A model generated the notes under the pieces. That model did no database searches. It had not been told where the DNA came from and saw nothing but the letters and a program-made list of their open reading frames with translations. From contig JAQCEQ010000008.1 in assembly GCA_027618565.1 (NCBI GenBank), forward strand, positions 688 to 64,687: DNA of 64,000 bases. Direction: 5' to 3'. A program made the translations under genes and the position numbers. The stretch comes from Planctomycetota bacterium (lineage in GTDB: Bacteria > Planctomycetota > Phycisphaerae > Phycisphaerales > SM1A02). Below, piece after piece: positions 1 through 4,880 of the stretch. How positions within the stretch are numbered: position 1 is the stretch's first letter; each line of letters starts with the position of its first letter.

Positions 1-1
1 T

Positions 2-550
2 TCCAGCAATCCCCAGGAACCAGTACAGGAGTGGTATCCGGGCGATGACCTCTTCTCCGTAGCCACACGCCGACGGGGCATTCCCATCGGAAACCTCACC
101 AGCCAGTTCTTTGCCAATGTGTTTCTTGACCGCGTCGACCACATCATGATGGATCGGCTTGGCTGTGGCGAGTACATCCGGTACTGCGATGACTTCCTGG
201 TCTTTGGAGATGACTGCAGCGACCTGTGGGCTGTCCGCGAGGCCGCGTCGCAGGCGCTGACGGACCAGCGACTGACGCTCCACGAGCGCAAGGGCGGCGT
301 TCACCGCACCAGCAGTCCGGTGCCCTTTCTCGGCTTTACCCTGCGTGGATCGACCCGGCGACTCCAGCGAGCCAGTCTCGTGCGTGCCACGCGGCGACTG
401 CGGGGGTACGCGGCGGGCCTCCGCATGGGCGCGATGTCCTCGGAAGCGGTCGCGGCTGGGATTGCTGCATGGGTGGGGCATGCCCGGTATGCAACCAATC
501 CGGGGCTGGTTTCCAAGGTGTTGGCGCGCGCGGGTGTGGACTCGCGGTAG
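2..550 (+). CDS. Diversity-generating retroelement (DGR) reverse transcriptase, 3' portion (5' end cut by window edge)
   Basis: The frame is open from base 2. The translation ...[24 protein letters not shown]... carries the IGxxxSQ variant of RT motif 4 typical of DGR RTs, followed by [12 protein letters not shown] (YxDD box). Stop TAG at 548-550. An AAC-rich template repeat begins 3 nt later. Confidence 0.85.
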
Positions 551-552
551 CC

Positions 553-720
553 TGCACGGCGGTACCGCGCCGAAACTGTTCGAACCGTGTGATCCGCGGC
601 GGCAGCTGGAACAACAACTCCAACAACTGCCGGGCCTCCAACCGCAACAACAACTCACCCGGCAACACGAACAACAACATCGGCTTCCGCCTCGTCAGCA
701 CTCCGAACACAGAGCCGTGC
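553..720 (+). other. DGR template repeat (TR), boundaries approximate
   Basis: One frame reads [43 protein letters not shown], a C-type-lectin/FGE-like DGR variable-region scaffold. 13 of the 23 codons between GGSW and IGFR are AAC (610-678). That frame has no protein body upstream, because it overlaps the RT out of frame, so this is the template and not a target gene. Confidence 0.75.
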
Positions 721-926
721 CGAGTGATCGGCCGGGAGATGCACGGAGTCCAGGTGCGGGGCCAGGGTTGGTGGTGAATGGGACGCGACGATGTCGCACC
801 CGGTCCCGCCGGTCCGAATCAGCCGTGAACTGCCGCTCCCCGGGAACCCGGGTCGCGGTGGTTCTGCCGCGTGATGTAGTTATAGGACTACTAGGAGCCA
901 GTCTCTAGCGTTGTTTTTGCCAAAAG

Positions 927-954
927 TTGCACAGATCTGTGCATATGTTACACT
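927..954 (+). promoter_or_regulatory. Putative vapBC promoter with palindromic operator
   Basis: AT-rich island with TTGCAC(927-932)-N16-TACACT(949-954)-N6-ATG(961). A perfect 16-bp palindrome TGCACAGATCTGTGCA (928-943) covers the -35/spacer. Confidence 0.4.
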
Positions 955-960
955 GCATGC

Positions 961-1221
961 ATGGCGCATAAGACCATCAGCCTGGACCTGGCGGCCTACG
1001 ACGCGCTGCGCGCTCGGAGGCTCGCACCCGACGAGTCATTTTCGCGCGTGGTGCTTCGGCTCTCGGCGCACGCCCCCCAGTCTGCGAGCGGGAGCGCGCT
1101 GGTGGACAAGCTGCTCGCAGACGGAGAGTCGCTCTGGTTCCCGCCGGAAGAAGAACTGGACCGGCTTGATGCCATCCAGGCAAGCCCGCGCCCGCGTCGC
1201 GATCGCCGGAGGGAGGCGTGA
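961..1221 (+). CDS. VapB-type antitoxin
   Basis: 86 aa. The N-terminus MAHKTISLDLAAYDALRARRLAPDESFSRVVLRL matches the small antitoxin family usually paired with PIN toxins. The stop overlaps the vapC start (GTGA). Confidence 0.7.
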   Translation: MAHKTISLDLAAYDALRARRLAPDESFSRVVLRLSAHAPQSASGSALVDKLLADGESLWFPPEEELDRLDAIQASPRPRRDRRREA

Positions 1222-1604
1222 TCGCCGACACGACCTTTCTCATCGACCTCGAACGCGAGGTGAAGCGTCGCACTCCCGGCCGCGCCGCAGGTGTGCTGGC
1301 TTCACGCCAGGGCGTGGTGGTCGGCGTCAGTGTGGTGGCATCCGCTGAACTCAGCGAGGGCTACGACGACGCCAGCCGCACTTCCGTCGCCCGGTTTCTG
1401 CAGCACTTCGAGCTGCTGCCCGTGGACGCGGAGACCGCTTGGATCTGGAGTCGGCTGAGCCAACGCGCTCGCTCCGAGGGGCGGGTGGTTGGTGACAACG
1501 ACCTCTGGATCGCCGCCACGGCTGCGCGTCACGCACGCCCGCTCATCACGCGCAACGCGCGGGATTTCGCCGATCTCCCCGGCGTCGTCGTGCTGGCGTA
1601 CTGA
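1218..1604 (+). CDS. vapC: PIN-domain ribonuclease toxin VapC
   Basis: 128 aa with N-terminal IADTTFLID (first acidic residue), internal SAELSEG, GDNDLWIAATA and C-terminal ITRNARDF, the PIN acidic tetrad pattern. It is translationally coupled to the upstream antitoxin. Confidence 0.85.
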   Translation: MIADTTFLIDLEREVKRRTPGRAAGVLASRQGVVVGVSVVASAELSEGYDDASRTSVARFLQHFELLPVDAETAWIWSRLSQRARSEGRVVGDNDLWIAATAARHARPLITRNARDFADLPGVVVLAY

Positions 1605-1608
1605 CGAC

Positions 1609-1689
1609 GGGATCGCGGCGCGCGTTTACTCCACAGGGATCGCGGCGCGCGTTTACTCCACAGGGATCGCGGCGCGCGTTTACTCCCCG
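1609..1689. repeat. 27-bp tandem repeat x3 (GGGATCGCGGCGCGCGTTTACTCCACA)
   Basis: Copies at 1609-1635 and 1636-1662 are identical. The copy at 1663-1689 diverges in its last 3 nt. Located in the convergent vapC/thiG intergenic region. Confidence 0.95.
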
Positions 1690-1695
1690 AGAATC

Positions 1696-1749
1696 GCGGC
1701 ACCTGCGGCACCTGCGGCACCTGCGGCACCTGCGGCACCTGCGAGTGCC
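1696..1749. repeat. 9-bp tandem repeat x5 plus one degenerate unit (GCGGCACCT)
   Basis: Five perfect units span 1696-1740, followed by GCGAGTGCC at 1741-1749. Confidence 0.95.
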
Positions 1750-1755
1750 GCCGAC

Positions 1756-2604
1756 TCACTCGCCCGCGATCGTCCCCTCCCACGGGCTGCTCGCCGTGGC
1801 GTAGAGCTTGCGAGGAATCCGACCCGCACGCGCGCCGATATAGCCGGATTCGCAGGCCATTCGCATCGCGTGGGCCATCGCGACTGGGTCTTTCGCGTGC
1901 GCGATGCCGGTGTTGAGCAGCACGCCGTCCGCGCCAAGTTCCATCGCGATCGTGATGTCGCTGGGTGTGCCCACGCCAGCGTCCACGATGACTGGATAGT
2001 CGGCCGAGCCGCCATGCGCAGGATCCTTGAGGAGTTCAAGAATGATTCGAATGGCCGCGGGATTGGCCGTGCCACGCCCCGAGCCGATCGGGCTGCCAGC
2101 GGGCATCACGCTGGTGGCGCCCGCGTCACGAAGTCGAACCGCCATGATGGGATCGTCGCTTGAGTAGCAGAGCACGCTGAATCCGTCGGCGACCAGTTCC
2201 TTGCAGGCTTCCAGCGTGCCCACCGGATCCGGCAGCAGCGTCTTCTTGTCGCCGAGCACTTCAAGCTTCACCCAGCTGGCGCCGGGATTCCCCAGTTGCT
2301 CCAGGAGGTCGCGGCCAAGTCTGGCCACTCGCACCGCGTCGGCGGCCGTGAAGCAACCCGCGGTGTTGGGGAGAATCGTGAGTCGATCCAGCGGGAGTTC
2401 CTCAAGGAGCGACTTCCCCTCCGCGTTCACCAGCCGCTCGCGTCGCACCGCGACCGTCACCGCGTCCGCGCCGCTCGCGTCCAGCGCCCGGCGCATGGTG
2501 GCAAAGTCGGCGTACTTGCCGGTGCCAACGATGAGTCGGCTCCTCAGCGTGAAGGGGCCAATGGAGAGGGCGGGGACGAGTTCGGTGGCGGTCACGGAGG
2601 CCAT
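1756..2604 (-). CDS. thiG: Thiazole synthase ThiG
   Basis: 282 aa, full-length match by eye to ThiG (...RLIVGTGKY...ILPNTAGC...KLEVLGD...[11 protein letters not shown]...[12 protein letters not shown]...GVLLNTGIA...). Confidence 0.95.
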
Positions 2605-2630
2605 GCCGCAATCGTAGTTGGGACGACTGG

Positions 2631-2657
2631 CTCAGCTCGCTCAGCTCGCTCAGCTAC
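2631..2657. repeat. 9-bp tandem repeat x3 (CTCAGCTCG) in the thiS-thiG intercistronic spacer
   Basis: Units at 2631-2639 and 2640-2648 are perfect. The unit at 2649-2657 has 2 mismatches. Confidence 0.9.
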
Positions 2658-2660
2658 GGT

Positions 2661-2885
2661 TCACCCGCCGCCGACGAGCGTCACGATCTCGACTCGCTGT
2701 CCGTCCGCAAGCCGGCGCGTGGCGTGGTCGCGGTGGCGGACGATCTCGCCGTCCACCTCTACCGCGCATGGGCGATCCGCAAGCCCTAGGTGCACGAGCA
2801 GTTCGTGCACGGTGACACGCTCACCGCCCGCCCCGTCCGGGCCCGCGGGAATCTGGCGATCGGTGCCGTTCACTCGCAGGGTCAT
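2661..2885 (-). CDS. thiS: Sulfur-carrier protein ThiS
   Basis: 74 aa, MTLRVNGT...VEIVTLVGGG with the C-terminal GG, directly upstream of thiG. Only the last 74 codons of track ORF 2661..3626 are taken. Confidence 0.85.
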   Translation of the reverse strand: MTLRVNGTDRQIPAGPDGAGGERVTVHELLVHLGLADRPCAVEVDGEIVRHRDHATRRLADGQRVEIVTLVGGG

Positions 2886-2906
2886 CGCACCTATCCTAGA
2901 AGCAGA

Positions 2907-3707
2907 GTGCGCCAACGCCTTCGGAAGTCGATCCTCCAGTTGCTGCCCGTGCTCGCGTGCTTCCTCGCCGCCTGCGGCGACAAGCCCGCGTACGACACCT
3001 CCACGCCCGAGGCGATGCTGGCGTCGCTCCAGCAGGCGATCCAGGAGGGCCACCCCGAGATCATTCCGCAGCTGATCGACCTCCCTGCGCGTGACATCAC
3101 CTTTGCCGACGGCGTGACGGAAGCCAGTGCCATCGGCGAAGTCAAGGGCAAGGCCGGCGACATGCTGGCGCAGCTGTGGCGCATCACGGAGAAGCTCCGC
3201 GCGCGGTATCCCGACGAGTTCGGCGACGAGGCGCAGGGCGCCTTTGACAAGGTGGACGAAATGCTGCCTTTGGCCGCCTACGGCAAGTACACGGCGAAGT
3301 TTCTGGCGGATCCGTTCGGTTTCATTTCGGAGCAGCGGGAGAAACTCACCGCCGAGGACATGGGCGATGGCACCGCCGCACTCCTCTACGAGGACGAGCC
3401 GATCTTTGAGGGTGCCGTCACACTGGTCGAGACCGACGACGGCTGGAAGTTCGCGGTCCCGCTCGACACGATGCGCGGCAGCGAGTACTTCCCCGACACG
3501 CGTGAGGAATGGTCGATCCTCGCCAGCCTGCTCCTCACGATGGAGAACGCGATGATCGACTTCGAGGACGAGCTGGACGCCGGCAAGTTCAAGACGATGC
3601 GCGCCGCCAGCGAGCGCGTGGGCCAAACCGTCGGAGCCAGCGTCATCGTGCAGTCCCTCGTCTACGCCGCGATGAAGCGAGACGACTCCCCGCCGGCGAC
3701 GCCTTGA
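2907..3707 (+). CDS. Hypothetical lipoprotein
   Basis: An in-frame GTG at 2907 gives VRQRLRKSILQLLPVLACFLAACGD (signal peptide plus lipobox LAAC). The remainder is an acidic, protein-like sequence. Its stop TGA (3705-3707) lies inside the first CTTGAAACGGT half-site. Confidence 0.65.
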   Translation: MRQRLRKSILQLLPVLACFLAACGDKPAYDTSTPEAMLASLQQAIQEGHPEIIPQLIDLPARDITFADGVTEASAIGEVKGKAGDMLAQLWRITEKLRARYPDEFGDEAQGAFDKVDEMLPLAAYGKYTAKFLADPFGFISEQREKLTAEDMGDGTAALLYEDEPIFEGAVTLVETDDGWKFAVPLDTMRGSEYFPDTREEWSILASLLLTMENAMIDFEDELDAGKFKTMRAASERVGQTVGASVIVQSLVYAAMKRDDSPPATP

Positions 3708-3776
3708 AACGGTCGAACCCCCGCCGGCGACGCCTTGAAACGGTCGAACCCGCGCCGGCGACGCCTTGAAACGGTC
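3690..3776. repeat. 31-bp tandem repeat x2.8 (CCGCCGGCGACGCCTTGAAACGGTCGAACCC)
   Basis: Units 3690-3720 and 3721-3751 are identical. A partial third unit at 3752-3776 runs into the hairpin loop. Each unit carries CTTGAAACGGT (3703, 3734, 3765) and repeats the last codons and stop of the lipoprotein gene. Confidence 0.95.
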
Positions 3777-3816
3777 AGGATTTGCTGCTTAAGTCACGAT
3801 TCCCACCGTTTCAAGG
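3764..3816. repeat. Hairpin element copy 1 (12-bp stem CCTTGAAACGGT/ACCGTTTCAAGG, 29-nt AT-richer loop)
   Basis: The arms at 3764-3775 and 3805-3816 are perfect reverse complements. The loop is CAGGATTTGCTGCTTAAGTCACGATTCCC. Located between the convergent lipoprotein and DUF559 genes. Confidence 0.9.
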
Positions 3817-3896
3817 GTGAGACGGCGACGCACCGCTCGCGCGCAACCGTTTCAAGGGTGAGACGGCGACGCACCGCTCGCGCGCAACCGTTTCAG
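3805..3896. repeat. 41-bp tandem repeat x2.2 (ACCGTTTCAAGGGTGAGACGGCGACGCACCGCTCGCGCGCA)
   Basis: Units 3805-3845 and 3846-3886 are identical. A degenerate start of a third unit (ACCGTTTCAG) lies at 3887-3896. The repeat duplicates the 3' end and stop codon of the DUF559 gene. Confidence 0.95.
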
Positions 3897-4880
3897 TGTC
3901 GCTTGCACCATGCCAGCCACCGCGCGGGGGTCGTCGGTCAGCGATTTCCAGGTGGCGTGCACCACCGTCCAGCCACCCAGCTGCAGGTCGTTGCGGCGAT
4001 CTCGATCCCGCTCGAACGCGGCATCGCTCGTATGAAAAGCCTTCCCGTCCACTTCCAAGGCCAGCCGGCAATCGGGCCAGGCGAAATCGATCCGTGCCAG
4101 GCGGTGCGAGAACCCCGCCTTCTTGGCCACCGGAACCCGCACGCTGTGGTTGGCGTGCCAGCCCGATCGACCGCCGGGTCGATTCCGCGCGCTGAGGAGT
4201 GCCCGCCGCATGAGCCGTTCCGCCGCTGAGTGGGTGCCATCGCGCAGGTGCCTGAGTGCCTGGCGTTCTGCCGCGTTGGAGCGCCGTCCTTGCCGACCGG
4301 CGGATCGGCCCGCGAGCCGCCGCTGGGCCTCGTCCACGCGAATCCAGCGACGCTGCAAGCAGTGATCCAGGAAGTCCGCGCGGAGGTCCGTGGGAACCAC
4401 CTGCAACGTGTCCAGGAGAGCAGTCAATCGATCCGCAAAGACCAAGTCGCGGCGGTGAATGGCACGCCCGTCGAATTGGCGTCGCAGGACCCTCGCGCCG
4501 GCCACGCTGATGTGTCGATTGACGGACGCGTAGGCCATTGGCGTGATCGCGCAGAATCGAGTGGCCCAGTCGCCATCGCACCCCAGAATCTGCGCCGCCG
4601 CCGCGCCGGTGATGACCGCCCCAGCGCCCAGTCGAAGCGTGAGCGCCTGGGCGTCGGCGCGGGACCGGCGCGTGACGGCGGATGGAATGAGCAGGCATTC
4701 CAGGTGCTTTCGCAGAAACCCTTGGCGTTCCAGCGTCGCCAGTCGGCGGCGCGAGCAGCCAAGCGCCAGTGCTTGTGGGCGTGTGACCACGCCCTGCTGG
4801 ACGCTTGCGAGCGAAGTCAAGTCATTCGTCGCGGCAGGTGTTCGTGATCGCGGAGTGATCGAGCCACGGTAAGGCAGCAA
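3852..4880 (-). CDS. DUF559 (Vsr-like endonuclease fold) protein with AbiEi-like N-terminal wHTH
   Basis: The C-terminus ...IDFAWPDCRLALEVDGKAFHTSDAAFERDRDRRNDLQLGGWTVVHATW is the DUF559 signature. The N-terminus QQGVVTRPQALALGCSRRRLATLERQG is AbiEi_4-like. There is no ATG near the 5' end; TTG at 4880 or TTG at 4820 are the possible starts. Confidence 0.8.
   Translation of the reverse strand: MLPYRGSITPRSRTPAATNDLTSLASVQQGVVTRPQALALGCSRRRLATLERQGFLRKHLECLLIPSAVTRRSRADAQALTLRLGAGAVITGAAAAQILGCDGDWATRFCAITPMAYASVNRHISVAGARVLRRQFDGRAIHRRDLVFADRLTALLDTLQVVPTDLRADFLDHCLQRRWIRVDEAQRRLAGRSAGRQGRRSNAAERQALRHLRDGTHSAAERLMRRALLSARNRPGGRSGWHANHSVRVPVAKKAGFSHRLARIDFAWPDCRLALEVDGKAFHTSDAAFERDRDRRNDLQLGGWTVVHATWKSLTDDPRAVAGMVQATLKRLRASGASPSHP

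Follow-up and report, generated by a model that had tools for sequence, protein, structure and literature searches.

A reverse transcriptase, a template repeat and a split variable repeat

The stretch analysed here (the window, 64,000 nt) covers positions 688–64687 of contig C59, so that a contig coordinate equals the window coordinate plus 687, and it belongs to a metagenome-assembled genome (MAG) of a small-genome freshwater planctomycete comprising 62 contigs (2.26 Mb, 96.8% complete). The window opens within a reverse transcriptase (RT) gene, whose 3′ two-thirds occupy positions 1..550 of the plus strand. The RT frame runs from nt 2 and remains open until a TAG codon at 548–550, and it encodes the motifs IGNLTSQ (86–106) and YCDD (182–193). 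The window fragment matched Pfam RVT_1 with an E-value of 4.8e-9 and the entire frame on the contig with an E-value of 3.2e-20; the RVT_1 search found this single RT in the genome. The gene is followed by a 551..577 spacer, near-identical in this genome and in the sister-genome contig SXQA01000055.1 (L005) and lying outside the TR/VR homology, and then by a 128-nt template repeat (TR; 578..705, plus strand). The TR contains 35 adenines, and 14 of the 42 codons in its frame are AAC; this frame matches the last 45 positions of the FGE-sulfatase family PF03781 (E=1.2e-8). The original prediction, a diversity-generating retroelement (DGR), had taken the AAC-rich stretch for a TR rather than a target gene and had counted 13 AAC codons, a number that we recovered within 23–24 codons. 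Its extent had been drawn at 553–720, whereas the repeat that pairs with a variable repeat (VR) is 578–705.

Alignment of the TR against the whole genome, a check proposed with the original prediction, revealed a paired VR split over two contig ends, both outside the window. The 3′ part of the VR lies at C59 1–48, with the target stop codon at 49–51; the contig start reads ...PGYSYGSGGFRLVRTP*, and its first 51 nt can be aligned with the 3′ portion of the TR. The 5′ part, together with the remainder of the target gene, lies on the minus strand of contig C61 (2254..1), whose reverse complement ends in ...RVIRGGGWNTNSYACRASSRGYGSPGD and whose first 90 nt (minus strand) correspond in alignment to the 5′ portion of the TR. 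The composite VR differs from the TR at 23 of 128 nt; all but 2 of these mismatches, 21 in total, coincide with TR adenines (P=7.3e-13). Where the contig ends overlap, over 10 nt, they disagree at two positions, both of them TR adenines. The target had been expected outside the window, which is correct, but also elsewhere in the genome, which is not, since the 3′ end of the VR lies on the same contig, 640 nt upstream. The order C61 (reverse complement) followed by C59 is regarded as the true adjacency because two related loci carry a target followed by avd and RT: the relative GCA_964356445.1 (contig CAYHHO010000048.1, L007) encodes a 766-aa homologous target followed directly by avd and RT, and the L005 locus starts with the orthologous target C-terminus, followed by avd and RT. 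The 3′ end of the TR (GGCTTCCGCCTCGTCAGCACTCCG) constitutes a putative IMH*-like segment that is one C/G apart from the VR end (CAGCACTCCG in the TR vs CAGGACTCCG in the VR). The candidate IMH/IMH*-type boundary is GGCTTCCGCCTCGTCAG[G/C]ACTCCG, and the same single G/C difference is kept in this genome and in L005. An RT with IGNLTSQ and YCDD motifs and a TR/VR pair with adenine-biased mismatches bear out the DGR assignment.

The target portion on C61 (2254..2, minus strand) encodes 751 aa and runs off the contig end within the VR; the complete protein, assembled from C61 and C59, would span about 765 aa. It carries a signal peptide, a TSP_3 match and a PF03781 FGE-sulfatase domain (E=3e-42 over residues 536–746). 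The VR corresponds to the last ~42 codons, for which the PF03781 match predicts an FGE/CLec-type binding fold. C61:2–2254 (minus strand) also encodes, downstream of the signal peptide and ahead of the FGE domain, about 10 copies of a Cys/Asp-rich unit (...DCN.NG(I/V)PDSCDI(A/T).G...), of which only the first matches Pfam TSP_3; the 766-aa target of L007 exhibits the same architecture.

A further FGE-related gene occurs on contig C17, where a 250-codon ORF (C17:52484–53236, minus strand; L003 4482–5234) encodes an FGE-sulfatase domain reduced to its C-terminal half. Over the final 128 nt of the ORF, 36 positions differ from the TR, 18 of them TR adenines (adenine enrichment P=5e-4). We rejected C17:52484–52611 as a second current VR on account of its 18 non-adenine mismatches alongside 18 at adenines and its N-terminally truncated FGE domain; the ORF may once have been a second DGR target that has since decayed.

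Deletion of avd and of the RT N-terminus

The 5′ part of the RT lies upstream of the window, from about C59 286. Its frame is open from C59 191, downstream of a TAG at 188–190, and contains no ATG, GTG or TTG ahead of a GTG at C59 374, which is codon ~61 of the frame. The N-terminal extension and the start codon of a complete RT ORF are both lacking. About 40 N-terminal residues that are conserved in 13 of the 14 aligned relatives are missing from this RT; in the relatives this N-terminus reads MAKGIG.(N/H)GELF..LCDP.HLIRSARAA.RGKR......F(L/M)L.LEPECFRL, and the lost part includes the clade-conserved GKR motif. In a collection of 5.8 billion proteins we found no full-length RT of the same species, the only 100% match being the same truncated gene. 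One entry, P0002 (318 aa, starting MLELEPE), had seemed to indicate an N-truncated RT in the sister genome; it was rejected as a gene-calling artefact because the sister DNA shows the full RT N-terminus overlapping avd.

Between the VR end and the RT, C59 97–327 (GTG at 97 to TGA at 325–327, outside the window) holds a 76-codon remnant of avd that retains only the N-terminal Avd tail. Its frame 0 reads ...AERRPRRNPGEDRPILELKAGEARPSDPPQPGTGVFSTG*, the middle of which aligns to the Avd N-terminal tail of L007 (...KRPRERSVPELKPGEVRPSQRP...). The remnant (...AERRPRRNPGEDRPILELKAGEARPSDPP) scored 58 against this tail, compared with 28±4.9 and a maximum of 45 for shuffled sequences (0/500). The remnant gave no bAvd Pfam match; the bAvd match of the L007 Avd covers residues 47–145. 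The avd-derived DNA ends in ...gaggcccggccctcc (about C59 285) and the RT-derived DNA begins with gatcctcctcaacctggaacc, equivalent to cgatttctgcttgacctcgaacc in L007, which places the junction at about C59 285/286. Here avd residue ~31 is joined out of frame to RT residue ~40, the two frames being offset by one. At the DNA level, homology to L005 covers C59 24–92 (the VR end and a CT-rich spacer) and resumes at 299 (LEPECFRL); these blocks are separated by 206 nt in this genome vs 573 nt in L005. A deletion of about 450 nt has removed the Avd helical bundle, RT residues 1 to ~40 and the RT start codon, with a microhomology of only ~5 nt at the breakpoint.

Profile searches with PF22296 and PF05635 in this 96.8%-complete genome returned no match at E≤1, in agreement with the earlier observation that avd is missing. 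The absence therefore stands, and its cause is a deletion that also took the first ~40 codons and the start codon of the RT. A disrupted upstream RT had been named as the sign of a dead DGR, and the loss of the RT start is such a disruption. The same junction is carried by L009, a Logan contig from run SRR2027830 that starts at C59:180 and is identical across the junction, RT, TR and vapBC but for a single SNP (C59:210, A/G); hence the junction is not peculiar to the MAG assembly.

Two other readings of this region were considered and discarded. The similarity of ILELKAGE to ILLNLEPE had suggested a 37-nt tandem duplication as the cause of the frameshift, but L007 shows that ELKAGEARPS belongs to the Avd N-terminal tail. 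The other was a chimeric contig created by a 31-nt exact repeat (AGGCTGCGATAGCAGCCGAGGCCGCCGGCGC) that is shared by C37:1–31 and C59:179–209, inside the avd remnant and 478 to 508 nt upstream of the window; both of its flanks are avd-tail-like and the breakpoint is elsewhere. L009 also starts at this 31-mer, and short shared repeats of 18–94 nt are a common end point of contigs in this assembly, six of these repeats being exactly 69 nt in length. The start of C37 has no homologue in 20 relatives.

The remaining RT bears no sign of decay. It is 83% identical to the sister-genome RT, and over 316 codons of the core the comparison with L005 yielded dS=0.86, dN=0.11 and dN/dS=0.13; the RT core is under purifying selection. 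Its 317 codons contain no stop, all invariant columns of a 15-sequence RT alignment are retained, and it shows no singleton change at any column where the other 14 sequences are invariant, against 0–18 in the other members.

A structured RNA 3′ of the template repeat

The sequence overlapping and following the TR 3′ end is predicted to form a structured RNA (679..863, plus strand). An RNAalifold consensus of eight loci contains 40 pairs, 18 of them with compensatory changes. In this consensus 95% of the cells are paired, vs 31–46% when the partners are slid by 1–3 columns, and none of 500 shuffles reached the observed values. The sequence of this genome can form 38 of the 40 consensus pairs. 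Helix 1 joins the 3′ end of the TR (682–688, GGCTTCC) to an invariant GGAGTCC at 745–751; further helices are formed by 715–723/728–735 and 765–771/809–815, and the structure ends in a 15-bp hairpin (828–843/848–863). A search of window positions 1–3000 against Rfam gave no family match. In the Bordetella phage DGR, the Sp RNA located 3′ of the TR forms a template:primer duplex with the TR 3′ end and bears Avd- and RT-binding stem-loops, and Sp-like elements have been predicted in 207 of 278 Avd-bearing DGRs (bioRxiv 10.1101/2023.10.23.563531). By analogy, we infer that the 679–863 region is the Sp equivalent of an RT-then-TR cassette. The covarying RNA of ~185 nt would then provide a concrete Sp-like structure for cassettes of this layout.

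Relatives and chromosomal setting

The closest relatives of the RT are encoded in freshwater Planctomycetota/Phycisphaerae MAGs, and the nearest homologues are flanked by TRs and FGE-type targets. The RT-then-TR order had been described as the less common DGR layout; in this clade it is the rule, the TR lying immediately 3′ of the RT in all seven closest relatives examined, and it corresponds to the published B2 architecture, avd-RT-TR (Wu et al. 2018, PMC5758913). In L007 and in both sister-genome contigs, L005 and SXOD01000019.1 (G001/L027), which derive from MAGs labelled 'Planctomycetia bacterium', a bAvd gene (PF22296) separates the target from the RT, whose start overlaps the 3′ end of avd. 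Among 40 relatives searched, a related RT was present in G001 and one distant genome only. The locus is a genuine chromosomal DGR of known architecture (target-avd-RT-TR, B2), and DGRs with FGE/CLec targets and an avd-RT-TR layout are already well catalogued.

Downstream of the TR lie two neighbours that are not DGR components, vapB (961–1221) and a PIN-domain vapC (1218–1604), both on the plus strand and identified by Pfam/NCBIfam; the vapBC pair reported next to the element is therefore real, and it occupies the same position in L005 and L009. The proposal that the region is island-like fared less well. The order RT-TR-vapB-vapC-thiG-thiS is syntenic in L005, which argues for a chromosomal locus that is stable within the genus rather than a recently acquired island. 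The repeats noted near the DGR do exist, with tandem arrays at 1609–1743. More broadly, TRF detected perfect tandem arrays at window positions 1609–1743, 2630–2655 and 3688–3895, around vapC/thiG/thiS and a DUF559-like gene, with units of 27 nt (3.4 copies), 9 nt (5.3), 9 nt (2.9), 31 nt (2.9) and 41 nt (2.2); we found no link between these arrays and the DGR.

A different, putative toxin-antitoxin arrangement was observed in L007, where the 5′ end of the RT gene (the first ~76 codons) is duplicated within 3534–4530 and the first copy stops after ...REPKP. Between the two copies lie HicB-like (128 aa) and HicA-like (80 aa) ORFs, assigned by reading their sequences, and it looks as though a toxin-antitoxin pair had entered the DGR cassette, with a target duplication. 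Together, the HicBA-like pair of L007 and the vapBC genes at the present locus suggest that these DGR cassettes attract toxin-antitoxin modules.

Past homing in this lineage

The TR of L005 differs from that of this genome at 7 of 128 nt. Six of these differences are at non-adenine positions, and at all six the VR of each genome carries the base of its own TR. Since the six non-adenine TR changes are mirrored in the cognate VRs, TR-to-VR transfer took place after the two lineages split. Homing has thus worked in this lineage in the past.

Functional state of the element

We consider it probable that the element is a recently inactivated DGR. In the intact cassette, the RT-TR-Sp transcript would fold with the TR 3′ end paired to the downstream GGAGTCC, and RT and Avd would produce an adenine-mutagenised cDNA of the 128-nt TR. 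This cDNA would replace the VR at the 3′ end of the gene for the secreted TSP3-repeat/FGE-CLec protein, whereby up to 14 Asn (AAC) codons of the ligand-binding face could be rewritten. The deletion would have ended cDNA synthesis here, and the current VR would represent a frozen last draw.

Catalysis in the Bordetella phage DGR depends on Avd, and the RT of that system touches both Avd and the template:primer duplex through its N-terminal extension (NTE), the location of a conserved Lys29 (bioRxiv 10.1101/2023.10.23.563531). Judged by these requirements, a loss of activity is the most likely consequence of the deletion, and because the genome holds no other Avd or RT, the element is most likely without cDNA synthesis. 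The deletion appears to be recent, given that the RT core, the TR and the post-TR RNA are intact. The TR retains all its AAC codons, and the RT can be used to set a limit on the time elapsed: invariant residues account for ~250 nonsynonymous sites and the own branch for ~0.43 substitutions per neutral site, so that the absence of singleton changes indicates that the RT would have been drifting freely for less than ~3% of that branch.

The lack of decay in the RT core, TR and Sp-like RNA would also be compatible with an element that still works, and the assemblies themselves supply the main contrary observations. Three independent MAG assemblies of this genus break in the VR or the target, at C59/C61 in this genome and, in the relatives with intact DGRs, at the contig start of L005 and at a contig end of G001 (C11, 139749). 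Together with the disagreement between the two VR ends, these breaks suggest that several VR alleles exist in the population and that diversification is recent or ongoing; the inactivation model can explain both only as leftover polymorphism. If VR microdiversity prevents assembly, breaks in the VR are to be expected, and contig breaks located in VRs could perhaps offer an inexpensive way of spotting active DGRs in MAG collections.

One way to accommodate such alleles is a mixed population, in which the deleted allele exists beside cells of the same species with intact avd and RT, so that the DGR is alive population-wide. We regard this as unlikely. The two disagreements at TR adenines, at a contig break within the VR, are what it would lead one to expect; the A/G SNP at C59:210 between the MAG and the Logan contig attests to some within-species variation, and the 31-mer shared by C37 and C59:179–209 could mark a branch in the assembly graph. 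Against it, the deletion is present in both available assemblies, the bin contains no avd contig, and the protein collection yielded neither a full-length RT nor an Avd-bearing contig of the same species. Likewise, a metagenome scan with a 30-mer from the avd tail returned no match, and a search with the 200-aa VR-bearing C-terminus for VR alleles of the same population found nothing above 79% identity.

A second explanation dispenses with the missing parts, proposing that the RT lacking residues 1–40 still works and carries out Avd-independent mutagenic homing. Its translation would then have to rely on a non-canonical start, on reinitiation at the GTG at C59:374 or on a +1 shift out of the avd-remnant ORF. 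Roughly one in four catalogued DGRs lacks avd (PMC5758913), and homing of this kind may in principle be possible. The explanation agrees with the purifying selection on a lesion-free RT core, the intact TR and Sp-like RNA, the apparent allelic variation of the VR and the reported Avd-less lineages. It is nevertheless improbable. Every close relative has Avd and the conserved N-terminal extension, and the model system needs Avd for catalysis and uses the NTE to contact the template:primer duplex. Moreover, the RT frame offers no ATG, GTG or TTG before codon ~61, the frames of the avd remnant and the RT do not match, and a very recent deletion explains the intactness equally well. We give slightly less credence still to the possibility that this avd-less, NTE-less RT goes on diversifying the VR as a natural minimal DGR, at which the disagreeing VR alleles at the contig break and the undecayed RT core, TR and Sp-like RNA hint; if true, Avd and the RT N-terminal extension would be dispensable in a lineage whose relatives all have both.

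Finally, a misjoin near the contig end that produced the ~450-nt gap in a cassette that is really intact would suit a junction lying less than 300 nt from that end and a 31-mer (C59:179–209) common to the start of C37, but it is very unlikely, as the avd-tail-like sequence on both sides of the 31-mer makes this stretch colinear with the relatives, the breakpoint at 285/286 lies 76 nt to its right and is covered without difference by the independent k=31 Logan contig, ~5 nt of microhomology is far too little for a de Bruijn misjoin, and the bin holds no avd sequence at all.

Recent inactivation of the DGR is accordingly the reading that we prefer, and its importance is modest. A B2 cassette that has suffered an internal deletion can pass for an RT-TR DGR without accessory genes. 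Before gene content alone is taken as evidence of Avd-independent homing, surveys should therefore look for remnants of avd and ask whether the RT has its N-terminal extension. In addition, the sister pair, one intact and the other with a clean deletion of avd and the NTE but otherwise alike, offers a natural control for the roles of Avd and the NTE beyond the Bordetella phage.

Comparison with known systems

The ancestral cassette of the clade, as seen in L005/G001, L007 and four further freshwater Planctomycetota MAGs, is arranged as target-avd-RT-TR, like other B2 DGRs. The copy described here has the outward look of an A2 element (RT and TR, no accessory gene), yet its architecture is that of a B2 element that has lost an internal segment. 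The sister element of L005/G001 is its closest counterpart, from the same genus, with the same neighbourhood (vapB, vapC, thiG, thiS) and the same VR class; 22 of its 24 TR/VR mismatches are at adenines, compared with 21 of 23 here. Unlike the present copy, it encodes a 147-aa bAvd and a 360-aa RT that starts with MAKNIGIHGELF and overlaps the 3′ end of avd.

With the DGR of phage BPP-1 (mtd-avd-TR-brt), the element shares an RT with the [I/L/V]GxxxSQ motif, an AAC-rich TR and adenine-specific transfer into the C-terminal VR of a binding protein, with a CLec fold that is predicted for the present target. Both also have a GC-rich 3′ end that differs between TR and VR, here a candidate IMH, and an RNA 3′ of the TR for which pairing with the TR end is predicted in the present element. 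The BPP-1 element is phage-borne and ordered avd-TR-RT, whereas the present element is chromosomal and the order in its clade is avd-RT-TR. In contrast to the BPP-1 target, the target here bears an FGE-sulfatase-type CLec domain on a secreted TSP3-repeat protein, and, unlike the BPP-1 DGR, this element has had its avd gene and the RT NTE deleted.
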